Shown: positions 119 through 20,077 of the stretch, in pieces
How positions within the stretch are numbered: position 1 is the first letter of the stretch
Layout of the letters: each line of letters begins with the position of its first letter
NCBI GenBank assembly: GCA_964645535.1
Contig: CAZYCQ010000004.1
Location: forward strand, 87,428 to 108,130
Direction of reading: 5' to 3'
From: an uncultured archaeon
GTDB taxonomy: Archaea > Asgardarchaeota > Heimdallarchaeia > Heimdallarchaeales > Kariarchaeaceae
Length of the DNA: 20,703 nt
Notes under the pieces: generated by a model
Told to the model about the DNA's origin: nothing
The model's database searches: none
The model's input: only the letters and a program-made list of their open reading frames with translations
Position numbers and translations under genes: made by a program

Positions 119-158
119 TATTATGAGAAATAGAATTTAAGTATATGGGGGGAACACC

Positions 159-1319
159 CTGGAGATATATAATCTTGGAAAATTAAACGATTCTTTTGCG
201 CCTTCGGTTCTTGTTCGGGAAAAATCTGGAATCCTTCTTGATTGTGGAAAAATAAACCAGAATTCCCCTCCAATTCCCCAATTGGAAAAAGTCGATATTT
301 CCAAGATTGAAGGAGTTATCATATCCCATGCCCATTTTGACCATTATGGTGCCTTGCCTTCACTAATGAAAATGGGCTATGACGGATCTGTCTTTACTGG
401 AAGGCTGACATCCCGTATTTTTTACTCTTGGGTCAAAAGAAAAATTGGGTTATTTGCCGGAGACTTTGGTGACTGGTTGCGGAATCATCTTGATCCAGTT
501 AATTATTTCGATGAAATCTCTCTCAACAATTATTCAATTGAATTACTTCCTTCCTATCATTCCTTTGATTCCTCCATGACACTAATTTCGAATGCACATA
601 AAACTATTCTTTACACCGGAGATTTGGGAATCAATGATGAGGCAATCCAAGTCAATTCTGAAATTGATGCAGTCCTCTTTGATGGTACCAATCTTTTTTT
701 GGAGGCAATTGATGATCCCAATGTTCTTCTAACCGGTTTCATCAAGATCATTAACTCAATCCTTGTTAGCGGACTGAATGTGGTCATTCCCGTCTTTACA
801 GTGCCAAGTCTGCAATTGATTGAAGCTATCCATTATTGGCTGGTATCCGGCCTGATCCCTGCAAAACCCAATTTCTATATCGACTCAAAAATTGAATTGA
901 CCCAATTTCTCCATGAATTTTACTTTGACAAAAAATTGATCCTTTCAAACCAAGAAGACTTGATTGAACCATATATCTTCCTCAAACATATCAACTCAAG
1001 AAAATCACCTAATTCCATTGAGATTCAACCCTTCCTATCCAAAAAGGATCTTCATGTTCAGGAATTGATCTCAATATATGGTTCCCTAGAGGAAGTCCCA
1101 TGGAATAGGTATGTTTCAACTTCATTATACTACCCTCTCTCAAACCACTTTCCTAGGAATAGACTTCCCACCTTTTTCAAAAAATTGAACGCCAAAATGG
1201 CCATTCCGATTGGGGATAATTATGGAAGGGAACAAAACCTTTTGCAGTGGTGGAGGGAAAACATTCCGAATACACATTTGCAATTCTTTCCACTACCTGA
1301 AAGAAAAATATCTGTGTGA
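159..1319 (+). CDS. MBL-fold metallo-hydrolase, divergent beta-CASP nuclease family (CPSF73/RNase J/SNM1-like)
   Basis: The frame is open upstream of the listed TTG at 282, back to TAA at 138-140. It encodes LEIYNLG...ILLDCG (motif 1, 231-248), then SHAHFDH (motif 2), SYH (motif 3), ILYTGD (motif 4), DAVLFDGT (motif A-like), GLNVVIPVF and YIDS (beta-CASP) and LSNH (motif B). The start is either CTG at 159 after GGGGGG, or ATG at 145 if one G is missing from the G-run. Confidence 0.85.
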   Translation: MEIYNLGKLNDSFAPSVLVREKSGILLDCGKINQNSPPIPQLEKVDISKIEGVIISHAHFDHYGALPSLMKMGYDGSVFTGRLTSRIFYSWVKRKIGLFAGDFGDWLRNHLDPVNYFDEISLNNYSIELLPSYHSFDSSMTLISNAHKTILYTGDLGINDEAIQVNSEIDAVLFDGTNLFLEAIDDPNVLLTGFIKIINSILVSGLNVVIPVFTVPSLQLIEAIHYWLVSGLIPAKPNFYIDSKIELTQFLHEFYFDKKLILSNQEDLIEPYIFLKHINSRKSPNSIEIQPFLSKKDLHVQELISIYGSLEEVPWNRYVSTSLYYPLSNHFPRNRLPTFFKKLNAKMAIPIGDNYGREQNLLQWWRENIPNTHLQFFPLPERKISV

Positions 1320-1328
1320 GGCAATACT

Positions 1329-2324
1329 ATGCAAGCCATTCTTCAAAACATCAGAAAAAACTTGGAAAACTCTCCGCAAGTCTTCAATGAAAGCTTCGCT
1401 CATGATTTGAGAATTGCGGAAGCCATAATCAACAATCCTGTAGCTTATCCACCAAAATTGATCCGAGATCTCAATGAGGAGGAGATAATGAACCGGTTAA
1501 GGCAATCCAAACTTTCTAAACCAGTTTACAGAAAATATTGGATTCGCCTATCACAAGATCTCTCTGATCGGATTCTTAACCTTTCAGAAGACAAGGAATG
1601 GGTTCTGAAATCCAAGAAAAAGCTCTTCGATTTGGGAAAGACCGATTTAACCGCAAAAATATTCTGGTTGACCCTGATCAATCAAATCAAAAAACATAGA
1701 GACAAACTTGAGATTGAAACGGATTTCATTGAATCTTTAAGGCTTTTGGCACCCAAAGTCAGGGTTTCTCATTTTAGGGATGTGATCAGAGACTACATAT
1801 CTTCAATTTACGGCTCCGATATTGTTGAAAGAAAAACCACCGAAGATATCCAATCTCTGCTCCAATATCTCGAAGTAATCCTGAATGAGGATCTGAATTC
1901 GGAAAAGATCGAAGAAATAGAATTTGCTCTTGCAGAAACCTACGAAAACCTATCCTCTGTTTACCAAACCTTACTCTGGGAAATCGAGGAGGCAAGGGAT
2001 TCTTCCATAAGATCCTTTTTGACAGACATGAATTCACAAAAAAATGGGTATCTTCTTGACCATGTCCTTACCTCATTGAAACACAAGGATCCTGATCTCA
2101 ACGAGAAATTTGTGAAACTGTTTGCATCTTTTCTCAAATTACATCAAATCAACCCAATCTTCCCAATGGGAAGAACAACCATCAAAAAAGACCAATTCGA
2201 TTTTATCGAAATTGTCGGGGAATCCTTTGAGGATGCCAACGACGTAGTTGTAGATATCATTTCCCCAGGATGGAGATACAAAAACTATGTAATCTCCAAA
2301 GCAAGGGGAGTGGAGGTAAAATAA
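1329..2324 (+). CDS. GrpE-like nucleotide exchange factor domain protein with an extended helical N-terminus
   Basis: The C-terminal ~75 aa (FLKLHQINPIFPMG...VDIISPGWRYKNYVISKARGVEV) follows the GrpE head pattern (V-x3-G[YW]-x5-VI-x2-A-x-V). The rest is helical or coiled-coil. It lies 9 nt after the MBL gene and 1 nt before the Hsp70 gene. Confidence 0.7.
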   Translation: MQAILQNIRKNLENSPQVFNESFAHDLRIAEAIINNPVAYPPKLIRDLNEEEIMNRLRQSKLSKPVYRKYWIRLSQDLSDRILNLSEDKEWVLKSKKKLFDLGKTDLTAKIFWLTLINQIKKHRDKLEIETDFIESLRLLAPKVRVSHFRDVIRDYISSIYGSDIVERKTTEDIQSLLQYLEVILNEDLNSEKIEEIEFALAETYENLSSVYQTLLWEIEEARDSSIRSFLTDMNSQKNGYLLDHVLTSLKHKDPDLNEKFVKLFASFLKLHQINPIFPMGRTTIKKDQFDFIEIVGESFEDANDVVVDIISPGWRYKNYVISKARGVEVK

Positions 2325-2325
2325 A

Positions 2326-5004
2326 ATGACACAAAATGTACCAACATTCGGAATCGATCTAGGAACAACCAATTCTTCCATCTCTTTTGCACAAGAGAAG
2401 AAATCCAACGGAGAAATCAATGTTCGAACCATCAGCTTCCGTCAGCTAACGGAAAATGGAGGACTTGAAACCGTGGATCTCCTTCCTTCATTCTTTTACA
2501 AGGAAGGAAACAGTGAATATGTCGGGGTTTATGCTAAAGCCAAAAGGAAAACCTCGCCTAATAATGTGATCCAATCAGTCAAAACAAAAATCGGAAGCGA
2601 TCACAGATATATCATTGATGGAGATACATTCACTCCAGTGGAAATATCCGCCAAGTTTCTTCAGGAATTGAAAAAACATGCATCAGCTGCCATGAAAAGA
2701 GAAATTGTTGATGCAGTTATCGCTGTCCCTGCAAATTTCGATCATGAAATGCGTCAAGCCACACTTGAAGCGGCACGAATGGCTGGATTTCATGTCTTTG
2801 AATCCGATGGTTCTCCAAGAGAAGGAATTCTGATCGATGAGCCAAGGGCAGTACTTTATGATATCCTCAATCGTCAACAAAATGGAGAATTCCCCACTCC
2901 CGTAATTCATGAAGATCAGGAAACAAATGTCTTGGTCTACGATTTTGGTGGGGGAACACTTGATGTCAGCCTTCATAAGGTTCGAATCTCTGATGACAGT
3001 CTTCTTGAAATAGAAGATTTGGCTATAGGAAGATATACCGAAATTGGTGGGGATACATTCGACAAAAGAGTACGGGATTGGATAAAAGACAAATTCTTCG
3101 AAGAACATCCTGAATTTGATTGGGACTCTCTTTCCCATAATGTAAAACAAGCATTTCTAACTCAAGCCCTTCTTGCCGCCGAAGAGGTGAAATATGCTCT
3201 TGTCAGAGATGAGATGTTCTCATCCGAAAATGGTGGCTGGGGTGAAATCTCAGAAGGAGTACCTCTTCAGACTGGGTTCCTTGTGGAAGATAAATCATTC
3301 TCCACATACATCACAAAAGATACATACAAACAAATTGTATCTGATCTTCTGGGCTTGGACTACTCCTTCCATGACTACGAATCTCTCAACATTTTCACTG
3401 ATCCCTCTGAAAAAAGGAACATCGTATTTCCTGTCCTTGATGTCATCTACAAGGCCTACAAGAAATTGGGGGAGGAACCAAAGATTGACCTTGTTCTCTG
3501 CTCTGGAGGAATGACCAATTTCTCTATCATCAGAGAACGATTGGAAGAACTCCTGAACATTAAACCAGTCCAAATTATTGATCCTGACAAGGCAGTTTCT
3601 CGAGGAGCGGCAATTTATGGCATTTACAGAAAAAGAGGCCTCAAAATCACACCAATCCTTGCAGAATCTATCTCACTAGGTCTTGAAGGAAATTTCACAA
3701 GCATACTTGTGGAGCAGGGAACAACGCTTCCCGTCAAGTCGAAGGTTGATGAGTTTTTTGTCGTTCCAAAAGATGGAACAAAAGAAATCCGTCTTCCAAT
3801 CTATAAGGGAGAGCATAAATATTCCTCGGAAAATCAACTCCTCAAAGGATTTGTTTTTGATCTTCAAAAACCAGTTCCTGCCGGGACAAATGTGGAAATT
3901 GAAGTCGAAGTAGACGTGAACAAAATCATTACCCTAAGGGTTTGGCTGAAAAACGATCCTGAAACTAAATTTGAAGGAAGAATTGCACCTTCGGAACTAC
4001 CTGAAACTTCAATGCAAGATCGAGAAAAACAAAAACTGCAACAGAAAGAAAAACCTGTTTTCAACTTCCCACCAATCAAGGTAGACACAGTTTTGAACAA
4101 ATATTTTTCCCGTCTTGACCAAAATACAGAGACTGGCACCAAGGAACTGGAAAATAAACTTATCTTGGCACCAAACGGAAAAGATGCCATTCCCAAATTA
4201 TGGAAAAAATACCGAAGCTCTTCAGCAACCCCTGCCGCCAGAAAACGTTTACCTTTCCTTCTTTCAAGACTTTACAAAAAGAATGGCAATGAACCATTCA
4301 GAAAAGATTTCGAGAAGGAGGTAATTAAAGTTCTTTCAAAGAATCGGATCGTGATCAGCCAAAGTGCTAGAAGTGAAATTTATGGGGCAATATTGGCTGC
4401 AATCACCCTTGAATTGAAGGGTGCCGCACAACCTCTCCGCAATTTGCTCCAAAATCCTCAGCTTTGGAGTTTTGATATTGCAATCATCGCTCTAGGGAAG
4501 CTTGGCGCAGACTCAAATGATTTTACCATTCTAAAGAAAATTCTAGAAAAGGCGGATAAGCTCCAGAAGATCGGTGCTTTGATCAATTCAACTTGGTCCA
4601 TAGGAAAACTTGCATCTCTTGACTTGCAGCCTCCTGTACCAAGAAGCCATTTCTATCCTCTAATCCCCAAAATGCAGGCAATTGCCCTTCGACATTTCAA
4701 TCCCAAAGGATTCAACAATAACTTACTTCGAAACATCATCTTCTCATATGGAGAAATGGCTGATTCAAGGAAGCAAGACATTTTTGATCCTCAACAGAAA
4801 TCAATCCTCCTCCAAAATCTAAAGGAAATACAGGAAAATCTTCTCAAAATGTCTTGGATAGGTCTTGAAGAATATCGAATAAAAGAAATCGAACATTTGG
4901 TTCAACTGGTGGAAACCGCCAAAAAAATGATTCTAGGAGAATCATTGACATCTGAAGAAGAGGAAACCTTGTTGACCATCAGATCAAACATAAACGTAGT
5001 CTAA
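2326..5004 (+). CDS. Non-canonical Hsp70-family protein (ATPase domain + SBD-beta + C-terminal HEAT/ARM-like repeats)
   Basis: Hsp70 motifs GIDLGTTNS, SVKTKIG, AVIAVPANF, DEPRA, YDFGGGTLDVS, IGGDTFD, SGGMT and DPDKAVSRGAA are present. SBD-beta-like segments follow (ILVEQGTTLPV, LPIYKGE, PAGTNVEIEVEVDVNKIITL). A ~300-aa helical tail carries IALGKLG, WSIGKL and FSYGEM. A GGAGGT SD sequence lies upstream. Confidence 0.93.
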   Translation: MTQNVPTFGIDLGTTNSSISFAQEKKSNGEINVRTISFRQLTENGGLETVDLLPSFFYKEGNSEYVGVYAKAKRKTSPNNVIQSVKTKIGSDHRYIIDGDTFTPVEISAKFLQELKKHASAAMKREIVDAVIAVPANFDHEMRQATLEAARMAGFHVFESDGSPREGILIDEPRAVLYDILNRQQNGEFPTPVIHEDQETNVLVYDFGGGTLDVSLHKVRISDDSLLEIEDLAIGRYTEIGGDTFDKRVRDWIKDKFFEEHPEFDWDSLSHNVKQAFLTQALLAAEEVKYALVRDEMFSSENGGWGEISEGVPLQTGFLVEDKSFSTYITKDTYKQIVSDLLGLDYSFHDYESLNIFTDPSEKRNIVFPVLDVIYKAYKKLGEEPKIDLVLCSGGMTNFSIIRERLEELLNIKPVQIIDPDKAVSRGAAIYGIYRKRGLKITPILAESISLGLEGNFTSILVEQGTTLPVKSKVDEFFVVPKDGTKEIRLPIYKGEHKYSSENQLLKGFVFDLQKPVPAGTNVEIEVEVDVNKIITLRVWLKNDPETKFEGRIAPSELPETSMQDREKQKLQQKEKPVFNFPPIKVDTVLNKYFSRLDQNTETGTKELENKLILAPNGKDAIPKLWKKYRSSSATPAARKRLPFLLSRLYKKNGNEPFRKDFEKEVIKVLSKNRIVISQSARSEIYGAILAAITLELKGAAQPLRNLLQNPQLWSFDIAIIALGKLGADSNDFTILKKILEKADKLQKIGALINSTWSIGKLASLDLQPPVPRSHFYPLIPKMQAIALRHFNPKGFNNNLLRNIIFSYGEMADSRKQDIFDPQQKSILLQNLKEIQENLLKMSWIGLEEYRIKEIEHLVQLVETAKKMILGESLTSEEEETLLTIRSNINVV

Positions 5005-6165: not shown

Positions 6166-9100
6166 ATGAGAGTGTTCTTATCAACCATTTTTGTATTCCT
6201 GCTAGTGTTTCATTCTAGTCAACCCTTTGTACAAGAGGTTATTTCCCCCTCAAACGATACCCAAAGCGACAGTGAAAAAATCATGTGTTCTGATAGTAGC
6301 AACTTTCTGATGCCCTCAGAACTTAAATGATTTTAAGATACTTAGCCTTGTTTTCTTCGAAATTGAAAAGGACATACTGAAAACCGACCTTCCTCCTCCA
6401 ATGAAAATTTACCATAATTTGCGGGCTGCTGTTTATGAAGTATCTTCTGGCAATTATGATTTATTCCAAAAACATTTTGGAAATAAGTTATTCCCAATTC
6501 CAGAATTTTACCAAAAAATTAGATGGCCCATAACAGAACCCTCGGAAAAGAACATTGTATCATTGGGGGAAATTCCAAAAGGAAGTATGCATGGACTCGT
6601 TCCACTTTGGGAAAAAGGTTATAACGGAACAGGTGTAGTAATCGGCATTATTGATACTGGTGTCGAATTTTCAAATCCCTCACTTTCTCATGCCTATTAT
6701 GCCTATGAATTCTTTGGCTATCCAAATCTTCCAGGTGACAAAATTCATGGAACTGCAGTTGCGAGTGTCATGGTTTCGAATGGAAGTGGCTATCCTGATC
6801 CAGATTTTGCCAAAGGGGTTGCCTATGGTGCAAAACTTGCAGTTGCTGAAATGGCAATGATCGTTATATTTATGGTGACTTTATTGGCGCTTTCGATTGG
6901 TTGCTTGGAATGCCTAAGGTTAAAATAATTAATTTTAGCATGGGCACACGATTGAGTTGGTTTGGAATGATAGCCCAAAGAATTGAACAAGCGAATAAAA
7001 TCTTGGTTGCCAGTGCAGGAAATGGTGGTACAGGTGGATCTGATTTGGATGACCCTTTCACAGTAACTTCTCCTGCAAGTAATCCTCATGCAATTGGAGT
7101 TGGTGGAACAACACCTGACAAAACTCTTTATCAAGCCACTTCAGAGGGACCTGGAGATTTCGGAATCATGAAGCCAGATCTAGTTGCTCAAGCTACAAAT
7201 GTTCTTGTTGCCAGCAAAGAAGGAGACTACTTTTATTGGGAAGGCACCTCTTTTGCAGCTCCAACAGTTGCCGGATCCATTGCCACTCTGATTTCTGCAT
7301 TGGAAGCAAATAACGTGAACTGGACTGTGGCAACCCTTAAGGCAGCCTTAATGAGAACTGCAACTGACTTGGACTATCCAAATTATCAACAGGGAACTGG
7401 TTTGATTAATGTTTCAAGGGCTTTTGATTATTTGATGTCTTTACCAAAGGATCAAGAGGGAATTCCAATTGTCTTTGAAGTAACTCCAAAGGAAGGGTAT
7501 CCTCCGGAACTCAATTCTATACCTATCGGAAGGGATCTTCATTTCCCGGTGACAGTCATTACATCTCATCTGGAAAATGTCTCTTTTGAATTGCAAGGGA
7601 ATTTTACAAGTTTTGCTTCTATCGACGTTCCAATGGTACAGAATTTTTCAAGTCATGAAATAACAATTCACATTACCCCCAATGGATCACAATCGGTTGG
7701 GTATTATTCTGGGGAACTAAGAGTTAGTTTCAATAACGAAACCATGCATGTTCCCATATCTTTCAATGTCCTTTCTGAACCGGCAAAAAAAATTTATGTC
7801 GATGGCTATCATACAGTTCTTGACGACGTCGGAGGATTTGGACTTGCAAGTGACCTGACTGGGGCATTGTCATCAATTCTACTGCAGGATGGATATTGGT
7901 TAGAAATCAAAAATGAACCATTCTCACTGGAAACTCTCTCTCAGTTCGATGCTTTACTCATGATTTCCCCCTTTAAGGAAAATGGATACACGGGTTTTGT
8001 ACCCAATCCAATTACGGATACTGAATTGAAAGTTCTTTTTGAATACTTGGAGCAAGGAGGTTCGCTGTTCTTGACTGGTGATAGTGTAGAAAATGGATCA
8101 CATATTTCACAGCTTGAAAAAATTTCAAAACCATTTGGCGTAACCTTCACTTCCACAGTTCCAGATGATCAACTCATATTGAAGAGAATTGCAAGATTTG
8201 CCTTTAATGAAACTTCAATCAATAGAAATGCAGATGCAATCCAAGTATTCTATGGTTCCCTGAATGTTGAATCTCCTGGCAGACCTTTAGCCATTGATGA
8301 AAATGGTTATGTTTCCCTAGCTTATGGTGTTACATCAAATTATGCAGGAAGGGTAGTATTTTCTGCCACAACACACTTTTTCCAAATAGAATATTTGGAT
8401 AGGGATGTTAAATTTCCCCACTCCACTGAATTTATCCAAGATCTTTTCGACTTCCTCACAAGCAAGGAAAGAATCTCTGTTGTGAATGAAACAATAACCG
8501 AAAATCAAGTCAACTTGGTTGTTAGATCAATGCAGAACGGAACATTTTCTGAAGTTGATCCAAAAATCAAATTAAGGGTTGGAAATGAAGAGGCATTCAA
8601 TTATACCATTGAATACTTGGGTCAAGGGTTTTCTGAAATCCGACTGTTGTTTCTGGAAGATGGATTATTTGAACCGGTAATGTCTTTTGGCAACGATTAC
8701 GTTGCGAGACAGTATATTATCGATACCGCTCCACCTCATCTGCGGAGCGATGATCGCAATCCTTCGAAAATATCTTCAGATCGAGATATTGCTGTTTTGA
8801 ATTTCTTTGCAGAAGACGAATCCGGGATTGATTGGAATAGCTTGGACGTAACTTTGGATGGAAAAAGTGATGGTTTCAACGTCTTCTCCTCCTCAAGCAG
8901 AATTACTGTTTCCTTCGCTCCGCGTTCATTATTACCACTTGAAACCCACACGATCAAAATTGAACTTTCAGATCTTTTTGGAAATGAAGGAAATCTTTCT
9001 TATTCTTTCTTCGTTTCAGGTAGGATTGAAGAAACAAGTTCAAGTATTGAAGAAACAACCCCAAATGATACCGAAACCATGGAATCGCAGATCTCAAGTT

Positions 9101-9192
9101 CGGTACGTGACGTTCCATTTGCGGAAACATCTATGATATTCATGTTGGCAATACTTATGGGTAAAAGACGAAAAGTTCTATTTAGGTCATAA
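6166..9192 (+). pseudogene. S8 subtilisin-like serine protease, secreted/membrane-anchored, MBTPS1 (site-1 protease)-like architecture; split by two frameshifts (sequencing error or recent inactivation)
   Basis: A signal peptide MRVFLSTIFVFLLVF starts at ATG 6166. A +1 shift at about 6311-6328 leads into the ORF containing IGIIDTG (D, 6653) and IHGTAVAS (H, 6746). A -1 shift at about 6850-6855 leads into the ORF containing SAGNGG, KPDLVA and EGTSFAAP (S, 7249). Downstream are an Ig-like region, a GATase-like/DUF4350-like region (KKIYVDGYH...YLEQGGSLFLTGD), another Ig-like region, an S/T/E-rich linker and a hydrophobic-basic tail. The reconstructed length is about 1008 aa. Confidence 0.85.
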
Positions 9193-12453: not shown

Positions 12454-12942
12454 TCAAATTTGATATTCCTTCTTGTTCATCACCTGACGGATGGTAAGCA
12501 TTCCTGTTTCCGTATCAAAGATGATGGTTCGTCCATAGTTTTCTCCGACATCTTCCGCAACAATTCGTATCCCCAATCCTTCAAGGATTTTCTTAACAGA
12601 ATCAATATTTCTCCTTCCGATATCTAGATTATTCGAGGCAGTATTGGTCTCAAACATCTTCGCTCCCCCTGCTATCTTCGCAATTAGGTTCTTCCGGCTT
12701 GCACCATGGGTTTCCAACATCCGGATTGCTTCCGGAATGGCTGTTGTTGCGAATTTTCCAGGATTGGCTCCCTGATCGCTATTCATTTCTGTCGGAAGAA
12801 GGACATGAGCCAAGGCAGCAATCTTGGTGTTCTTGTCATACAAAACCACGCCTACACAACTCCCAAGAGCTAGTGCCTGAAGTTTGGCGGGAGCACGGGC
12901 GATCTGAATCTCCCCGATTTTGGCAGTCAATACCTGCGACAT
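12454..12942 (-). CDS. cheD: Chemoreceptor glutamine deamidase CheD
   Basis: ALGSCVGVVLYD (catalytic C), AHVLLP (H), KIAGGAKMF, IGRRNI and DVGENYGRTI. The start is placed at ATG 12942, overlapping the cheC stop (TGATG). Confidence 0.95.
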   Translation of the reverse strand: MSQVLTAKIGEIQIARAPAKLQALALGSCVGVVLYDKNTKIAALAHVLLPTEMNSDQGANPGKFATTAIPEAIRMLETHGASRKNLIAKIAGGAKMFETNTASNNLDIGRRNIDSVKKILEGLGIRIVAEDVGENYGRTIIFDTETGMLTIRQVMNKKEYQI

Positions 12943-13604
12943 CAATACATCGCCTCCCAATTCTCTCCATACAGGGTGGTCATCAAGGCATTCATGGCCT
13001 TTCGATCCGGTAGCATGAGGATATCTCCCTTGATTTTTTCCTCGTCCGTGAAGATGTCCACCTCAACCAGAAGAAATTTGTCTCCTGTATCTCCTTCAAT
13101 TGAAACAAGCTCATCAGTTAATGCACCTACCATGTCTATGGCAAGGCTCGGTGCATGGGGGAACCATTTCGCTTCGGTAAAGCTGTTGATCGCTGAAATG
13201 GTATGAATAAGAAGGATATTGCCGGTTTCTTTGATGATGGATCTTGAAAGTTCATCTAAATCTTCAATCCGGCTTGGAATGGGTGATGCAACCAAGGTTC
13301 CAAGGAGTTGTTTGATGGATTCGAAATCGAATATGAGCAAAAGGTTCAGAACACCCTTTTCATCCTCAGACGTCTCTTGCAGTATACCTGCTACAACCTC
13401 CTCTGGTGTTTCCGCCAAGTATTCTCCCACATCTGCTATCGGGACAAACCTGACCCGCGGAATGCTCATATCAACCCGTCGGTTCAGAAGTTGCGAAAGT
13501 GCAGTTGCTGCATGACCCACACCAATATTGCTTAACTCCTGAAGGGCCTCAATCTTTGGATCATAATCTTCAAAGAGCCCATCATCGGGAATCCTTAAAC
13601 CCAT
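12942..13604 (-). CDS. cheC: CheY-P phosphatase CheC
   Basis: Two CheC E-x2-N motifs, ALQELSNIGVGHAATALSQLL...SIP and IIKETGNIL...APSLAIDM. Adjacent to cheD. Confidence 0.93.
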   Translation of the reverse strand: MGLRIPDDGLFEDYDPKIEALQELSNIGVGHAATALSQLLNRRVDMSIPRVRFVPIADVGEYLAETPEEVVAGILQETSEDEKGVLNLLLIFDFESIKQLLGTLVASPIPSRIEDLDELSRSIIKETGNILLIHTISAINSFTEAKWFPHAPSLAIDMVGALTDELVSIEGDTGDKFLLVEVDIFTDEEKIKGDILMLPDRKAMNALMTTLYGENWEAMY

Positions 13605-13724
13605 CTGTTCTCTATTACAACTTTTGCTGATAAAAACTAACTGTTAGTAAATGGTTTATTGATAGAAATTCCTTAATTTTGTTCTAGATCATGGACATTG
13701 ATGTCAATCCTTGTTTTTCCTTCC

Positions 13725-14318
13725 CTAGGCACGTTCACCATAATAGAAACCTAAGTAGATCGCAGCCGCTGCAATCCATTGTTCCAAAAACTGAAAGGTA
13801 GGGTTGAATGCAGTGACATAGAATGTGAAACCGACAATGGCTATTGCAGCAACTGCATTCAGATGTTCAATCAGGCTGGTTTTGTTCAATCGTTCCTCCT
13901 CAACTCCTCGGCGCCGTCGGAATGCCACCTTGAATCGGTTGAAGGTTCGACCGAAAAGAAATCCGAAAATAATGGTTGCAATGTCCATATAATAGTCTGG
14001 AATGCTGATCCCAATATATTGGAGATACAGTACCTGAAAAATGAAAAATATAATCAAGATGGTTCTGATGGTTCCTGAAGGCAACCCCCACGCCCGATCT
14101 GCTCGGGTTGAGGTATCTCTTGGAATTACCATCCCCCTGGCTCTCATTCGCCCTCCGAAATAAAATGCTAATGCCACGAGTACAATGCTTGCTACTTGGT
14201 CTGCAAACGGTTCCTCACGGATGGTGATCAGAAACAGATCCGTGGACAACAACAACGTCAATGTTGCACGGACAGAACCCTTAGGCAAACCCAACGGATA
14301 TGGATATGGAAATCCCAT
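13725..14318 (-). CDS. Small multi-pass membrane protein built from three 2-TM repeats (GLPxG[ST][VI]R ... [AG]F[YL][FY]G)
   Basis: The repeats are PLGLPKGSVRA...AFYFGGR, AWGLPSGTIRT...GFLFGR and ...GFYYGER. The start was moved from 14396 to ATG 14318, which removes the overlap with the upstream gene and places TTAATAAAA (14340-14348) upstream. Confidence 0.75.
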   Translation of the reverse strand: MGFPYPYPLGLPKGSVRATLTLLLSTDLFLITIREEPFADQVASIVLVALAFYFGGRMRARGMVIPRDTSTRADRAWGLPSGTIRTILIIFFIFQVLYLQYIGISIPDYYMDIATIIFGFLFGRTFNRFKVAFRRRRGVEEERLNKTSLIEHLNAVAAIAIVGFTFYVTAFNPTFQFLEQWIAAAAIYLGFYYGERA

Positions 14319-14361
14319 ACCGAGTCGATTCGTAAATGGTTTTATTAACCTATCGCGGCTC

Positions 14362-15054
14362 TTATACCACATAACGGGATGGTTTGGAAAAATCAAACCT
14401 TACATTGAATTTCTCTGCAAACTTGCAGTTGGCTTCCATTCCGTAGTTTCGCCTTCGTGTATAGAACCAGTCATCTGCTTCCTTCCAATCATAGATTTCT
14501 GAATAGAAATCAATTGCCGCTTTTGCCTGCTCAATGGCCGATGTGATGTCAACATATTTGATTGGCAGGTTTACTATGGATTCATAATAGCTAAGAAAGG
14601 TGACATTCTTGCGATGAGGCTCCATATTTACAATGTTTTTGATTCTCGCAAACTTGATTGCCTCAAAAGCCAGATAACCTGTGTTCTTGTGGTCACTGTG
14701 AATATTGAAAAATCCCCAAGAAATTACTGCATCAGGTTTGTTGGTGGCATAAAATTTGGCAACTTCCACCCTTTGTTCGTTTGTATTTTCAACCTTCCCA
14801 TCTCCAAAACCCAAAATATATGACGATTCAGCGCCAACTATTTTAGCAATTTCTTCTGTATGTCTTTTTCTTTCCTTCTTGATTTCTTCAGGGCTCAAGT
14901 CAGGAAGAAGTGTTGTCAGTTCCCCATAGGTCGTCCACGCCATGATTACCCGATCCCCACGTTCTGCATGATTGGCTAGAGTACCGATTGCACCAAGTTC
15001 GTCATCAGGATGGGCGAATAAAGAGATGATTGTCTTCTTCTCACTGTCTGCCAT
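14362..15054 (-). CDS. PIG-L/LmbE family deacetylase (BshB/MshB-like)
   Basis: LFAHPDDE, WTTYGE, GFGDG and HSDH motifs. Confidence 0.92.
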   Translation of the reverse strand: MADSEKKTIISLFAHPDDELGAIGTLANHAERGDRVIMAWTTYGELTTLLPDLSPEEIKKERKRHTEEIAKIVGAESSYILGFGDGKVENTNEQRVEVAKFYATNKPDAVISWGFFNIHSDHKNTGYLAFEAIKFARIKNIVNMEPHRKNVTFLSYYESIVNLPIKYVDITSAIEQAKAAIDFYSEIYDWKEADDWFYTRRRNYGMEANCKFAEKFNVRFDFSKPSRYVV

Positions 15055-15265
15055 GACCTGACCACTTGAAAATCGGTTAAAAACACCAACATTCAGGTAA
15101 TCTCACTTCGAAATGGTCTAAAAGGAAGTTTTTTTTCGGAATTGCTTCTCCTTTCTTCGAACACTGTTCGATATTTTTGGAAAAATGAACAAAATTGCAT
15201 TTTTTTCCGACCGTTTTTATAAATAATATCCGTAGAATTAAATACTATAGGGGTGAAAGGAATTT

Positions 15266-15949
15266 GTGGACACCATTTTTTCCATTCTGGATTTGGAGAC
15301 AGAGGAAATCGATGGTCTAGTTTACTATGTAAATATGGCATGTTCATTTGACGCTATTGTGGCGAAACAGGGGCATCCAATTGAGATCTCTGATGAAGAA
15401 GATTGGTCCATTGTTCACAAATTACGATCACAATCCGTTGCCGTTCTCGTCGGAAGTACAACAATCTTGGCCGACGATCCAAGCCTGCTGGTGAAATCAA
15501 AATATGTCCCAAATGCCCATCATCCCCTCAGAATTGTCCTTGATAGAAGAGGAAGATTGACAGGTCGCGAAAAGGTTTTCAAAAACCAAGACAAGTCACG
15601 AACATTATGGTTCACTTCAAAACGATTGAGACTTACCAAGGAACCAAAATACCATATAGTTAAGGTTCGGGAGAACATAGAAACCGAGGAATTAATCCAG
15701 TTGATTGCACAAACCTTGCAACAAGATTACAATATCAAAGAGGGATTCATCATGGTTGAGGGAGGACCTCATGTGGTGAAATCCTTCCTTGAAGCAGGCG
15801 TGGTTAAACGATTCAGGCTCTATCGATCCAATTCCATCGAAGAATCAGGGGTCCCCATTTTCTCATTAAGACCCCGTGTTACTCTGGTGCCCCATCAAGC
15901 AAGAGTCATGAAGTCAGGCATTGAAGAATTATATGAAATCAAGATATAG
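15266..15949 (+). CDS. RibD C-terminal/DHFR-family reductase (2,5-diamino-6-ribosylamino-pyrimidinone 5'-phosphate reductase-like)
   Basis: Motifs NMACSFDAIVA, ISDEED..VHKLRS..AVLVGSTTILADDPSL, PLRIVLD and IMVEGG. A GGGGTGA SD sequence precedes the GTG start. Confidence 0.88.
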   Translation: MDTIFSILDLETEEIDGLVYYVNMACSFDAIVAKQGHPIEISDEEDWSIVHKLRSQSVAVLVGSTTILADDPSLLVKSKYVPNAHHPLRIVLDRRGRLTGREKVFKNQDKSRTLWFTSKRLRLTKEPKYHIVKVRENIETEELIQLIAQTLQQDYNIKEGFIMVEGGPHVVKSFLEAGVVKRFRLYRSNSIEESGVPIFSLRPRVTLVPHQARVMKSGIEELYEIKI

Positions 15950-16027
15950 AAGTGTTTGCATCGAAATGAAGCGTTGCTTTCGTTCGGCTCGAAAATTGTT
16001 TTAATCATATCATGAGAAATATGTTCA

Positions 16028-16921
16028 TTGAAAGAAAAGACCGATGACCATCAAGAACTGGATGAAGTGACAAGATACCTACTTACCCTCAAGGAAGATG
16101 TGAAACCGCCAGAAGGGTTTGAAGTAAACTACATTCAACTTTCAGATGGTGGGAAAGTTCGTCACCTAAGATTTGTTCCTGAAAATCCAATTGCTCAAGT
16201 CATTCTCATTCCAGGCCTAAATACGTTATTGATGTCATGGTACAAGTTTCTTCTTCTTCTCCAAAAAGAACGATTTCAAATAGACTATGTTGAAACAAGG
16301 GAAAAAAGGACATCAATTTTGAAAAAGGCCAAGAGCATTACCTATGAACGACTTATTCAGGATGTAAAGGAAGCCTATGAGAAAGTGAATGAACAAGGTT
16401 TGAAAACCGTGGCTCTTGGATCTTCCATGGGGGCAAACCTTATTCTTCTTTCTTTGGCTAGGCAAGAAATCGATCCGGATTTTGCAGTTCTTGTTGGACC
16501 ACTTCTTGATTTTCATATCCCCAAATTCTTTAAGTTTGTCTCACCATTTCTCAACAGGGTCACTTTTACCATCATCAAACCGATAGCTTGGTGGTTTGTT
16601 CTTCCAAGATTCCTAAATAAGGAAAAGGATCCGTTTCAAGCCCATAAGTATGAACTTGGATTCAAGTTGGGGGATGCAACAAAAATGAAGTATGCTTTCA
16701 AAAGCTGGGCTGGAACCACATTGCGGGAGGATCTTCCCAAAATCAACGGAAAGAAAACCCAAGTTGTACTTATAGGTGCCGAAGAAGATAAGTTGCATGC
16801 GGCAGACGAAACCAAAAAAATCGCTGAAATGACTGAAAATGCCATGTATATTGACCTCAAGACAAATTTTGCCGCCCATGACCAACCTTTGGTTGATCTT
16901 CTGAAAGAACTTGTTTCTTGA
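16028..16921 (+). CDS. Alpha/beta hydrolase
   Basis: Oxyanion region LIPGLN, nucleophile elbow GSSMG, acid residue in GAEED and a C-terminal His in AAH. Confidence 0.88.
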   Translation: MKEKTDDHQELDEVTRYLLTLKEDVKPPEGFEVNYIQLSDGGKVRHLRFVPENPIAQVILIPGLNTLLMSWYKFLLLLQKERFQIDYVETREKRTSILKKAKSITYERLIQDVKEAYEKVNEQGLKTVALGSSMGANLILLSLARQEIDPDFAVLVGPLLDFHIPKFFKFVSPFLNRVTFTIIKPIAWWFVLPRFLNKEKDPFQAHKYELGFKLGDATKMKYAFKSWAGTTLREDLPKINGKKTQVVLIGAEEDKLHAADETKKIAEMTENAMYIDLKTNFAAHDQPLVDLLKELVS

Positions 16922-16984
16922 ATTATGATCCGTTTTTGAGACGAAATGGGGGAAAAATTCTTTTGTCATGCTGATGAATGATAT

Positions 16985-18070
16985 TTGTTGCCCGTTACTG
17001 TATTGATTGCGGATGATTCTCCTTTCATGCTCAAATTGCTGAATGACACCATCTCCACCGATCCAAATCTAAAGGTGATCGGCACTGCCAAGAGGGGGGT
17101 GGAGTGTATCACACAAGTAATTACCAAAAGACCACGGGTTGTTGTCCTTGATATCATGCTCCCTGATGAAAGCGGTCTGAACATCGTCTACCAGATTATG
17201 AGGGCAAGACCCACGGCAGTCGTTCTTTTCTCCTCTCTTACCGCTGAGAAAGTGAAGCAGGATTCCCTTGTGTTCAATTACGGAATTGTAGATTTCGTCT
17301 CAAAACCTCCAAACGAAATTGAGGATCCAATCGCCTATCTCAAGAAAACCCTGATCCCCAAAGTCCACACCCTTGCAAAACTGAATGTCCAGAAATTCAA
17401 GTATATGATATCCACCACAAATGATGAATTCCTTGGAAGGATTTCTACACAAAAGGAAAAGGAAATTCCCGTTGCTGAAACAAAGATCACTCCACGACAG
17501 GCCATTCGAAGGCTGATAGTGATTGGCGCAAGTACTGGTGGTCCAAGCGCCCTTGCTCATTTGTTTTCTCTGCTCCCTTCCAACCTCCCTCCTATTCTAG
17601 TGGTTCAGCATATGCCACCTGGTTTCATCGAATCTTTTGCAGTCAGGCTTGACAAGGCATCAAAAGTCCAAGTACAGGCTGCTGAAGAAGGCATGATATT
17701 GCAACCAGGTAATGCCTATGTTGCACAAGGTGGAAAACACATGGTGCTTGAAAAGAAGAAAAACGGTCAAGTCATGATCAAATTTGATGATGGACCTCTT
17801 GTCAATTTCGTCAAACCATCTGTGGACGTCACCATTCTTTCAGCTGCCGAGATTTTCCGGGACAACATGCTTGTTGTCATCATGACCGGAATGGGTAAGG
17901 ATGGCTTGCAAGGATCGCGTCTCGTGAAAAAATATGGTGGAAAGGTCTTGGCTCAAAGTAAGGAAGACTCAGTGATCTACGGAATGAACAAAGCAGTTGT
18001 TGACGCGGGCTTGGCCGATCGAATCATGCCAGTTGAACGACTAGCGAAAACAATCACGGAAATGATCTAG
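16985..18070 (+). CDS. cheB: Chemotaxis response regulator protein-glutamate methylesterase CheB
   Basis: An N-terminal REC domain (IADDS, LDIMLP, FVSKP) is joined to a methylesterase domain (IGASTGG, VQHMP, KPSVDV, MTGMGKDG). Confidence 0.96.
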   Translation: MLPVTVLIADDSPFMLKLLNDTISTDPNLKVIGTAKRGVECITQVITKRPRVVVLDIMLPDESGLNIVYQIMRARPTAVVLFSSLTAEKVKQDSLVFNYGIVDFVSKPPNEIEDPIAYLKKTLIPKVHTLAKLNVQKFKYMISTTNDEFLGRISTQKEKEIPVAETKITPRQAIRRLIVIGASTGGPSALAHLFSLLPSNLPPILVVQHMPPGFIESFAVRLDKASKVQVQAAEEGMILQPGNAYVAQGGKHMVLEKKKNGQVMIKFDDGPLVNFVKPSVDVTILSAAEIFRDNMLVVIMTGMGKDGLQGSRLVKKYGGKVLAQSKEDSVIYGMNKAVVDAGLADRIMPVERLAKTITEMI

Positions 18071-18429
18071 GAAGAAACCGTTTTTTCTATTGCCTTGACA
18101 ATTTCTTCATTTCTGAAAGGTTTAATGATGAATTCCCTCGCACCAGACTTGATGGCGTCCAAAACAAAAGCTTCCTGACCTAACGCCGTTACCATGACAA
18201 TTCTTGCATTTGGATCGAAGGACATAATCTGTTTGACTGCCTCAATTCCATTTTGCTTCGGCATGACAATATCTAGGGTCATACAGTCCGGTCTCTCTCT
18301 CGCCCAGATCTCAACGGCATCTACCCCGGTTTCACCCTCTGCCACGATTTCATGGCCCGCATCCGTCAATATCCTTCTCAAAACTAATCGCATAAATTTT
18401 GCATCGTCAACTATCGCTATTCGTGCCAT
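18067..18429 (-). CDS. cheY: Chemotaxis response regulator CheY
   Basis: Stand-alone REC domain with IVDDAKFMR, TLDIVMP, VTALGQ and FIIKPF. It resembles the Firmicutes/Thermotoga/archaeal CheY type. Confidence 0.88.
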   Translation of the reverse strand: MARIAIVDDAKFMRLVLRRILTDAGHEIVAEGETGVDAVEIWARERPDCMTLDIVMPKQNGIEAVKQIMSFDPNARIVMVTALGQEAFVLDAIKSGAREFIIKPFRNEEIVKAIEKTVSS

Positions 18430-18563
18430 GGTTTTCCCTCAACAAAACGGAAATGTATACATATTAAGAACTATTCTGCTACTATTTAATTGTTTTTTAG
18501 GGGAAGTGTCATGACTGACCGAAATTTCACGTTTTAGTTATATCGTTCATTTCGTTTTACTCT

Positions 18564-18935
18564 TCACGGATTATCCAAGACATTATTGATCACTTGAGCC
18601 AATTGGCTGAGCCGAAATGGCTTTGTCACAAAATCCTTGGCACCTGCTCTTAAGGCTGGCTGGACAATATGTGGACTGGAAATCGATGTGACCATGACCA
18701 CTTTTGCAGAGGGGTTGAGTGTCAAAATTCTTTTGAGAACTTGGAGTCCATCCATTTTTGGCATGACCACGTCTAAGGTGACTAAATCAATCTCGTGCAT
18801 GTGCTCCGCATAGATGTTGATGGCATCTTCCCCATTGACTGCTCGATAAACCACATCATGTCCCATCTTTCTCAGTAGCTTTTCAATCACCATCAACATG
18901 AAACGGGCGTCATCCACAACCATTATCCTAGCCAC
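18564..18935 (-). CDS. cheY: Second CheY-like stand-alone response regulator
   Basis: VVDDARFM, TLDVVMPKMDG, VTS and FVTKPF, with a GTG start. Confidence 0.8.
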   Translation of the reverse strand: MARIMVVDDARFMLMVIEKLLRKMGHDVVYRAVNGEDAINIYAEHMHEIDLVTLDVVMPKMDGLQVLKRILTLNPSAKVVMVTSISSPHIVQPALRAGAKDFVTKPFRLSQLAQVINNVLDNP

Positions 18936-19068
18936 TTAGATATTCACCGACAAGTCACATCACTTTCTCTTATTATTGAATTTTCCGAACATGTTCGTAA
19001 TTATTGCATCAATCAAATAGTATTCAATCAAAATATTCCCTAACTTTTTTCTTACTCTGTGAATGTTT

Positions 19069-19971
19069 TTATCCGCCCATATGCTCTTGGATCTTTTTCA
19101 CCAATTCATCCTTATTGCTTCGGGTGCTGACGTTCTCAATTCCCATTTCAATGGCTATTCTGATGAGCTCTGCCTTGGTGAGGCTATGAAGATCCAAAGG
19201 ACTTTCCCCGAACTGATCTTCTTCTGCCGGTTTTTTGGCAGGAGCCTCTTTTTTGGCTTTCTTTGCCGGCTTCGTTGATGTGACCGATTTTGGTTCTTCC
19301 TTCTTGACTACCTTCATCCCTTGGTCATCCACTATTATGTCCTCATCATCTGCAAGATCATCTATTGAGAAATCTGCGCCTAACTTGTCCTTTGAACTGA
19401 TACGGTCAATTTCATCGTTTGTGACAGTAACCTCGTCTGAGGTTTCGATCTCCTTCGAGAGCACCTGTTCGCGCACCGCAGCCAATTTTTCGAGTTGGGA
19501 TACCTCATACTCAGATAGAATGACCTGAAGTGTCAAGATGATCACAATGCCCAAATCCGTCTGGACAACTCCTTCAATGAAAGGAGTGGTCTGTTCCTTT
19601 GATAGGAGAGTCAATGATTCCTGAATGTCCTTCTCATCAACAGTAATGACGGCTTCCACATAATCAACCAAGAGCCCAACCAGTGATTTTCCAACATTCA
19701 CCATGAGAACGTAGTTCCTATCATCCTCATCATAGGTTCTTTTCGGTTTCCGAGTCTCTTCAATCAACAATCTTCTCTTGAGATCGATTGTGGAAATAAT
19801 TTGACCCCTGAAGTTGATTACTCCTGCAATGTAGTCTGGGGCTTGAGGAATGGGGGTGATGGTTTCAGGAACAAATACTTCCTGAACATTATGGACGTCA
19901 AACGCAAAGTATTCGTCATTGAGAAGGAAAGTGACCAACTTCTTCTGTTTTGTCGTCTGCGCAGTGCTCAT
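19069..19971 (-). CDS. cheW: Chemotaxis coupling protein CheW with acidic/low-complexity linker and C-terminal Rho_N/HeH-like domain
   Basis: CheW motifs LVTFLLNDEYFAFDVHNVQEV, ITPIPQAPDYIAGVINFRGQIISTIDL and VGLLVDYV, then the tail LHSLTKAELIRIAIEMGI...KDELVKKI. The start was moved from 20019 to ATG 19971, which has an AGGT SD-like sequence and a TATA-like TTTTTTATTA at 19999-20008. Confidence 0.9.
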   Translation of the reverse strand: MSTAQTTKQKKLVTFLLNDEYFAFDVHNVQEVFVPETITPIPQAPDYIAGVINFRGQIISTIDLKRRLLIEETRKPKRTYDEDDRNYVLMVNVGKSLVGLLVDYVEAVITVDEKDIQESLTLLSKEQTTPFIEGVVQTDLGIVIILTLQVILSEYEVSQLEKLAAVREQVLSKEIETSDEVTVTNDEIDRISSKDKLGADFSIDDLADDEDIIVDDQGMKVVKKEEPKSVTSTKPAKKAKKEAPAKKPAEEDQFGESPLDLHSLTKAELIRIAIEMGIENVSTRSNKDELVKKIQEHMGG

Positions 19972-20077
19972 GTAATACCTAACCTGTGTTTGAATCAATA
20001 ATAAAAAAGTCATTCCCATCCATGGTGGAAAAGGAGTCGAAACTTCACGCAGAAAACAACAGTGGTCTGAACCCAGT

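Follow-up and report, generated by a model that had tools for sequence, protein, structure and literature searches.

The stretch of DNA analysed here (hereafter the window) comprises 20,703 nucleotides (nt) from an uncultured archaeon of the family Kariarchaeaceae in the phylum Asgardarchaeota (assembly GCA_964645535.1, contig CAZYCQ010000004.1, positions 87,428 to 108,130). Its left-hand part carries three consecutive forward-strand genes, which encode in order a nuclease of the metallo-beta-lactamase (MBL) fold, a GrpE-like protein and an Hsp70, here named Hsp70-HEAT, in which an alpha-solenoid of HEAT-like repeats is predicted in the position of the helical lid. Comparative analysis indicates that Hsp70-HEAT belongs to a widespread, hitherto undescribed Hsp70 lineage that is linked to a GrpE-like factor and a nuclease, and full-text literature searches found no description of this nuclease/GrpE-like/Hsp70-HEAT cassette.

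Architecture and phylogenetic position of Hsp70-HEAT

The domains of Hsp70-HEAT are ordered as nucleotide-binding domain (NBD), short linker, beta subdomain of the substrate-binding domain (SBD-beta), spacer and alpha-solenoid, and were delimited as follows, with the evidence for each in brackets.

2326..5004, forward strand: Hsp70-HEAT gene, 892 amino acids (aa) plus stop (open reading frame (ORF) and translation; Pfam HSP70 match, 4.8e-52; family alignment)
2326..3645, forward strand: NBD, residues 1-440, with family-specific inserts from residues 156, 183 and 342 (alignments; match to DnaK in the PDB)
3646..3666, forward strand: remodelled interdomain linker, residues 441-447, ending in TPILAE (alignments with E. 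coli DnaK and the genome's own DnaK)
3667..3975, forward strand: SBD-beta, about residues 448-550 (alignment with DnaK in the PDB)
3976..4080, forward strand: charged spacer, about residues 551-585, predicted to be disordered (AlphaFold2 predicted local distance difference test score, pLDDT)
4081..4986, forward strand: HEAT/armadillo-like alpha-solenoid of 16 helices, residues 586-887, in the lid position (AlphaFold2; structure searches; HEAT_2 matches in homologs)

The Pfam HSP70 profile (PF00012) matched the protein in three stretches, and the nearest solved structures were those of DnaK, which aligned in two blocks, one covering residues 8-258 and the other approximately residues 385-545 (DnaK 333-494). 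Residue-level comparisons were based on an alignment of 28 family members with the genome's own DnaK and on an alignment of 50 Hsp70s including E. coli DnaK. The catalytic motifs, which an initial annotation of the window had described as intact, start at residues 9 (GIDLGTT), 84 (SVKTK), 171 (DEP) and 208 (GGGTLD), and the equivalents of the ATPase-centre residues D8, T11, T12, K70, E171, D194, G196-G198, T199, D201 and D233 (E. coli DnaK numbering) were kept in 30/30 family members. The same holds for the equivalents of P143 and R151 (30/30 in the alignment), which are known from work on DnaK as the interdomain relay. The inserts from residues 156, 183 and 342 correspond to gaps in canonical DnaK and include the family-wide consensus sequences DGSPRN and NRQxxGEIPxxxIDF, and this conservation indicates that they are traits of the family rather than noise. 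The inserts proposed in the initial annotation are thus real, and the NBD, which it had ended at about residue 435, was found to end near residue 440, making it approximately 50 aa longer than that of DnaK.

The interdomain linker had also been described as replaced. The segment GLKITPILAE (residues 438-447) is indeed altered, and is three residues shorter than the VLLLDVTPL of DnaK, but a hydrophobic-acidic core is kept family-wide ([IV][LT][NA][ED], reading ILAE here and ILNE or ILND in most members), so that the linker is better regarded as remodelled than as simply replaced. In the family alignment of SBD-beta, the positions of the substrate pocket (I401, F426, V436, I438 and I472) remain hydrophobic, and the arch residues M404 and A429 vary. 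With the P143/R151 relay and the linker core both kept, interdomain allostery has probably not been abandoned, and the loss of linker- and lid-mediated allostery implied by the initial annotation was not supported.

The C-terminal region was modelled with AlphaFold2 from residue 545 to residue 892, giving a pLDDT of 86.6 and a predicted template modelling score (pTM) of 0.81. Residues 545-577 were disordered in this model (model residues 1-33, pLDDT <50), and 16 helices were predicted over residues 586-886, i.e. from nt 4081, close to the position (about nt 4090) from which the initial annotation had placed HEAT-like helical repeats behind a charged linker. The model describes an alpha-solenoid of seven to eight repeats tethered to SBD-beta by the disordered spacer. 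A Foldseek search of the PDB with the tail returned designed armadillo (ARM) proteins, alphaRep, importins, MO25 and symplekin, and the VIA-align search (approximately 48,000 chains) returned importin-beta (Z 17.7, 290 residues aligned, root-mean-square deviation 4.1 Å) followed by adaptins, designed ARM proteins, IFRD2 and INTS4 (Z 15.4). Neither search returned an Hsp70 or Hsp110 lid among the fold matches of the tail, only alpha-solenoids. On the basis of the model and the fold searches, the idea of a stretched Hsp110-type lid at the C-terminus was rejected, and the solenoid proposed in the initial annotation, rather than an ordinary lid bundle, is the predicted fold. At the sequence level, an alignment of 14 homologous tails was examined with Pfam, and HEAT_2 was detected in 10/14 (best 3e-10) and HEAT_PBS in 5/14; there was no Pfam HEAT match for the window's own tail at E <= 0.01. 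In the ESM Atlas, the neighbours of the tail comprised HEAT proteins as well as long bacterial proteins annotated as 'Hsp70 family protein'.

An Hsp70-like NBD and SBD followed by HEAT-like repeats have also been predicted computationally for CnuD/CnuCD of the type III CoCoNuTs (Bell, Makarova, Wolf, Koonin, eLife 2024, PMC11090510), and this shared architecture raises the alternative that Hsp70-HEAT is the CnuD subunit of such a McrBC-related restriction system. However, no gene for a McrB-like GTPase (CnuB) or a DUF2357/McrC-like protein (CnuC) was found among the 21 ORFs of the 20.7-kb window (Pfam) or in the related loci examined. Further, a degenerate Walker A-like motif is described for CnuD whereas the ATPase residues are all conserved here, and the text of PMC11090510 does not mention GrpE or nucleotide exchange. 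The missing McrB-like and DUF2357 partners, together with the intact ATPase motifs, argue that Hsp70-HEAT is not a CoCoNuT component, and this alternative is considered highly improbable.

The family to which Hsp70-HEAT belongs is broad. A word-indexed search retrieved many relatives of 870-960 aa, alignable over their full length at about 30-37% identity, the named ones being 'Hsp70 family protein' entries of Thermotogota, Fusobacteriota and Poribacteria, many with precomputed HEAT_2 or HEAT_PBS domains. Three bacterial members (P0093, P0101 and P0118, 1170-1275 aa) carry an extra region of approximately 280-330 aa N-terminal to the NBD, precomputed as PF28530. In a maximum-likelihood tree of the NBD and SBD-beta, the family formed a single clade, which included four short forms without a tail, and was separated by a long branch (Shimodaira-Hasegawa-like approximate likelihood ratio test 100) from a clade of 17 DnaKs together with E. 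coli HscA and HscC; the tree sample held no Hsp110 sequence. Consistent with this separation, the family is approximately 27% identical to the genome's own DnaK, and Hsp70-HEAT scored 163 bits against the NCBIfam DnaK models (cut-offs 822.55 for TIGR02350 and 648 for NF001413) and 150-151 bits against those for HscA (cut-offs 620-708), the curated cut-offs of the DnaK and HscA models together spanning 620-1019 bits. The specialised, non-canonical character suggested for this protein at the outset is therefore borne out by scores far below cut-off and by a separate clade, and the sequence comparisons place it in a deeply branching Hsp70 lineage that is distinct from DnaK, HscA and HscC and occurs in many bacteria and a few Asgard archaea.

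The GrpE-like partner and the canonical chaperone system

The gene immediately upstream of Hsp70-HEAT ends one nucleotide before the Hsp70-HEAT start.

1329..2324, forward strand: GrpE-like partner gene, 331 aa, with a helical N-terminal domain (residues 1-165, nt 1329-1823) and a GrpE-like half (residues 188-331, nt 1890-2321) (adjacency, profiles, model)

There was no Pfam match for the 331-aa protein itself. A homolog of 195 aa exceeded the gathering score of Pfam GrpE (PF01025; 30.8 against 25.8 bits), and the profile of the partner family aligned to a GrpE profile with hhalign at 94.6% probability (E 7e-8). In the AlphaFold2 model (pLDDT 82.7), the top matches were likewise GrpE proteins, namely 4ani_B with Foldseek (probability 0.99) and 1dkg_B with VIA-align (Z 8.1, 133/151 residues, spanning model residues 188-331). 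The N-terminal helical domain (residues 1-165) is an addition to the GrpE-like half and has no recognised fold. When 1.84 billion representatives were searched with a profile of this GrpE-like marker, 375 clusters were returned, 319 of them at E <= 1e-10, and most with proteins of 330-430 aa. The profile and model comparisons identify the partner as a divergent nucleotide-exchange factor of the GrpE type, predicted to be private to Hsp70-HEAT.

A canonical chaperone system is encoded separately in the same genome, as a grpE-dnaK-dnaJ operon with full Pfam matches on contig C16, which answers the question raised by the initial annotation of whether an ordinary dnaK-dnaJ locus exists elsewhere. 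Apart from the dnaJ of this operon, no J-domain gene was found in the assembly, which is 89% complete and contains no SSU rRNA, and there is no J-domain gene within the Hsp70-HEAT operon. Further, the three residues that classically form the DnaJ channel of DnaK (R167, N170 and T173) are replaced across the Hsp70-HEAT family by E/N/D, D and R, respectively. The changed channel residues, the operon without a J gene and the single J-domain gene in the genome together make it plausible that Hsp70-HEAT works without a classical J-domain partner, as was suspected in the initial annotation.

The presence of a canonical DnaK system in the genome, along with the retained hydrophobic pocket of SBD-beta, would also fit a DnaK-derived proteostasis co-chaperone that, like Hsp110, cooperates with or acts on the canonical DnaK, for example by promoting nucleotide exchange or boosting disaggregation, with the solenoid recruiting special clients. 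A co-chaperone role has been proposed for NBD-containing prokaryotic 'DnaK derivatives', many of which are unexplained (Goloubinoff, De Los Rios, Rebeaud, FEBS J 2026, PMC13580251). However, neither a GrpE-like factor of its own nor a nuclease in linkage would be expected of such a protein, the fully intact catalytic residues give no hint of a role restricted to nucleotide exchange, and few relatives carry the rapidly diverging Hsp70-HEAT though all have DnaK. A co-chaperone of this kind consequently appears quite unlikely.

Nuclease, conservation and evolution of the cassette

The third member of the cassette lies upstream of the GrpE-like gene, ending 9 nt before it.

141..1319, forward strand: gene for an MBL-fold, beta-CASP-related nuclease, start uncertain (Pfam Lactamase_B and Lactamase_B_2)

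The reading frame is open from position 141, covering the first strand (LEIYNLG) and motif 1 (ILLDCG), and contains no ATG, GTG or TTG from 141 to 281, before a TTG at 282. An ATG at 145 lies one base out of frame. The start could come from the CTG at 159 or have been obscured by a one-base error in the run of six G residues at 147-152. The N-terminus is similar to aCPSF1, Cas14 and RNase J, and in an alignment of ten MBL sequences the residues of HxHxDH and of motifs 3, 4 and B vary little or not at all. The MBL proteins of bacterial cassettes carry Beta-Casp and RMMBL domains of the CPSF73/RNase J type (Pfam).

Conservation of the cassette was examined at 18 loci, seven archaeal and 11 metagenomic, the latter retrieved with the back-translated family-specific motif DEPRAALYD[FLI]. 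A GrpE-like gene lay directly upstream of the Hsp70 gene at 18/18 loci, including all 11 metagenomic ones (hmmsearch E 6e-14 to 3e-37), and an MBL gene lay upstream of the GrpE-like gene at ten loci, four of them metagenomic. The three-gene order of the window recurred in the related genomes G001, G002, G003 and G006 and also in G039, which belongs to the same taxonomic order, and the flanking genes differed; in G032, the end of the contig falls inside the middle, GrpE-like, gene. In a nine-member bacterial cluster from several contigs and different sources, represented by the 771-aa protein P0197, an MBL/RMMBL nuclease (residues 1-376) was fused to a GrpE-like region (401-766), which argues that the two act together physically.

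Departures from this arrangement were also observed. At metagenomic locus L190 (876-11220), the nuclease position is occupied by a 798-aa Csm6-type HEPN protein, followed by the GrpE-like and Hsp70-HEAT genes and by a second, very divergent Hsp70-like protein of 1046 aa, with Cas1 adjoining on the opposite strand. At the short-form loci L181 (1794-6320), L186, L188 and L189, a 195-aa GrpE-like gene accompanies a 567-aa Hsp70 without a solenoid. Across the 18 loci, a small sample, the solenoid, the upstream nuclease and the extra N-terminal domain of the GrpE-like protein are either all present or all absent. One further locus, L183, has a STAND NB-ARC/TPR ATPase as its neighbour.

The cassette has diverged well beyond the chaperone genes of the same genomes. 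Between the window's genome and G002, of the same genus, the canonical DnaK, GrpE and DnaJ were 91, 81 and 80% identical, whereas Hsp70-HEAT, the GrpE-like partner and the MBL protein were 56, 45 and 29% identical; against G003, the corresponding values were 77, 59 and 58% and 37, 29 and 24%. The GrpE-like marker was present in 7/301 sampled genomes of the phylum, all within one order, and the Asgard copies fell into two separate clades of the family tree. Divergence beyond that of grpE-dnaK-dnaJ, patchy occurrence and two Asgard clades together indicate, at the level of sequence, that the cassette is accessory, horizontally mobile and fast-evolving. In Asgard archaea the cassette appears to have been acquired horizontally and does not resemble a eukaryote-like trait, a caution against over-reading it as a precursor of Hsp110 or CPSF.

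These observations also bear on whether the cassette has a housekeeping function in RNA processing or decay, in which the solenoid would scaffold a beta-CASP ribonuclease and the Hsp70/GrpE-like pair would assemble or remodel the complex or its ribonucleoprotein (RNP) substrates. The bacterial cassette nucleases do carry Beta-Casp and RMMBL domains, the latter an RNA-specificity domain, the fold matches of the solenoid include symplekin and the Integrator cleavage-module subunit INTS4, and the genes around the cassette in the window are ordinary. However, the INTS4 and symplekin matches are generic, with importin-beta and designed ARM proteins scoring higher, and neither an occurrence in 7/301 genomes with divergence far beyond that of core genes, nor the swap of the nuclease for a HEPN RNase beside Cas1, would be expected of a core machine. 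A housekeeping role in RNA metabolism is thus unlikely, albeit with some evidence in its favour.

The remainder of the window contains genes of other kinds. A subtilase S8 catalytic domain is split across two overlapping ORFs in different frames (6401-6928 and 6901-9192), with Pfam profile positions 1-88 matched in the first and 110-288 in the second, which would be compatible with a frameshift, a sequencing error or a pseudogene. Between 9254 and 12387 lie a 622-aa ORF without a Pfam match and, overlapping its stop, the gene for a 422-aa protein with a C-terminal zinc ribbon and RING finger. The right half of the window is occupied by a chemotaxis cluster (12454-20019; CheD, CheC, CheB, a CheY-like receiver and CheW) unrelated to the cassette.

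Proposed role and comparison with known systems

Hsp70s are textbook general chaperones, and the initial annotation had proposed a solenoid for recognition of a specific target. With a nuclease in the cassette, control of an effector is a better reading than a stand-alone chaperone dedicated to a special client, and Hsp70-HEAT probably controls the nuclease rather than folding proteins. The favoured interpretation, given a probability of roughly one half, is that the three genes form an ATP-cycle-gated nuclease module of the conflict or defence type. In the proposed mechanism, Hsp70-HEAT would alternate between ATP and ADP states, with its private GrpE-like factor resetting the cycle and a classical J-domain partner probably dispensable. 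SBD-beta and/or the solenoid would catch a specific ligand, which may be a foreign or aberrant protein, an RNP or the nuclease itself, and the nucleotide-driven conformational change would release, load or activate the nuclease. The role would most likely be in conflict/defence or nucleic-acid surveillance, and not in general folding. The signs of a conflict-type function are the HEPN protein in the nuclease slot with Cas1 alongside (L190), the STAND NB-ARC neighbour (L183), the patchy distribution, the two separate Asgard clades and the fast divergence. Precedents are offered by CnuD (PMC11090510) and by the lidless DnaK-like domains of protease-effector defence modules (PMC12642450).

Several observations weigh against this interpretation. 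None of the three cassette proteins had a match in PADLOC-DB 2.0 at E <= 0.01, the neighbours in the window (aldo-keto reductase, subtilase and chemotaxis genes) are ordinary, and obvious defence neighbours were seen at only 2/11 metagenomic loci. No family member was found among the 80 viral loci kept in a scan of viral contigs that was keyed on generic Hsp70 motifs, the matches being phage DnaK-like genes whose alignment ended before the tail. The four short-form loci, which are close relatives of one lineage, lack both nuclease and solenoid and have a 672-aa Ser/Thr kinase as the next gene, implying that the core of Hsp70 and GrpE-like protein is not tied to nucleases alone. Within the clade of the window, the MBL proteins lack the motif C histidine (I, F or V in its place, compared with VHG in bacterial copies), and Beta-Casp and RMMBL signatures were undetectable by Pfam in the window-clade MBL; with these features lost, the activity and substrate of the window-clade enzymes are uncertain, and they may act on another substrate than the RNase-type copies of bacteria. 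Finally, fast divergence and patchiness would also fit other accessory functions. A complex prediction combining the MBL protein, the N-terminal domain of the GrpE-like partner and the solenoid scored 0.00, giving no answer and speaking neither for nor against.

More tentatively, and with less confidence than is placed in a gated nuclease module as such, the cassettes could represent a new class of immune or surveillance system in bacteria and Asgard archaea. In such a system, a lidless Hsp70 would sense a foreign protein or RNP through its beta-sandwich and HEAT solenoid, the private GrpE-like adaptor would reset its ATP/ADP cycle, and an exchangeable RNase (beta-CASP or HEPN) would be licensed to degrade nucleic acid. 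If true, the immune switch would come from a chaperone cycle instead of a STAND, AAA+ or cyclic-nucleotide switch, constituting a new sensing principle and providing experimental footing for the computational CnuD prediction. More generally, the exchange of a lid for a solenoid, combined with a dedicated exchange factor and a nuclease, would show the reuse of the Hsp70 ATP cycle as an effector switch. With the function of prokaryotic 'DnaK derivatives' open (PMC13580251), the cassette provides a directly testable three-gene unit.

Among known systems, the canonical DnaK-GrpE-DnaJ machine shares with the cassette the catalytic set, the P143/R151 relay, a beta-sandwich with a hydrophobic pocket and an adjoining gene for a GrpE-fold factor. 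Unlike DnaK, Hsp70-HEAT has a longer NBD, a shorter linker, altered DnaJ-channel residues and no helical lid, its operon has no J gene and encodes a GrpE-like protein with a 165-aa N-terminal domain, and it falls in a separate deep clade. Hsp110, Sse1 and Grp170 likewise derive from Hsp70, measure approximately 900 aa, carry inserts in the NBD and diverge at the C-terminus. In Hsp110, a helical lid bundle is retained and packs on the NBD, whereas a HEAT/ARM solenoid behind a disordered spacer is predicted here, this comparison being one of fold, as the tree contains no Hsp110.

Lidless DnaK-like domains fused to EACC1-protease defence modules (bioRxiv 2025, PMC12642450) resemble Hsp70-HEAT in the absence of lid helices, the association with death or defence effectors and a proposed role as sensor. 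However, these domains are approximately 50% identical to canonical DnaK, compared with approximately 27% identity between the Hsp70-HEAT family and the genome's own DnaK, and the cassette differs further in having a solenoid, a GrpE-like factor and a nuclease and no protease fusion. The eukaryotic scaffolds of symplekin-CPSF73/CPSF100 and INTS4-INTS9/INTS11 also combine a HEAT-type solenoid with a nuclease of the beta-CASP family, as is encoded here, but this is an analogy only, given that the eukaryotic scaffolds are not fused to Hsp70 and the fold matches are generic to solenoids. On the basis of its published description, rather than sequence comparison, the nearest described relative appears to be CnuD/CnuCD. 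The likeness extends from the NBD and SBD followed by HEAT-like repeats to the RNases alongside (HEPN in CoCoNuTs) and the prediction of a conflict system, while the differences include the partners, since neither a GrpE-like factor nor an MBL nuclease of the beta-CASP type, both encoded here, is described for CoCoNuTs.

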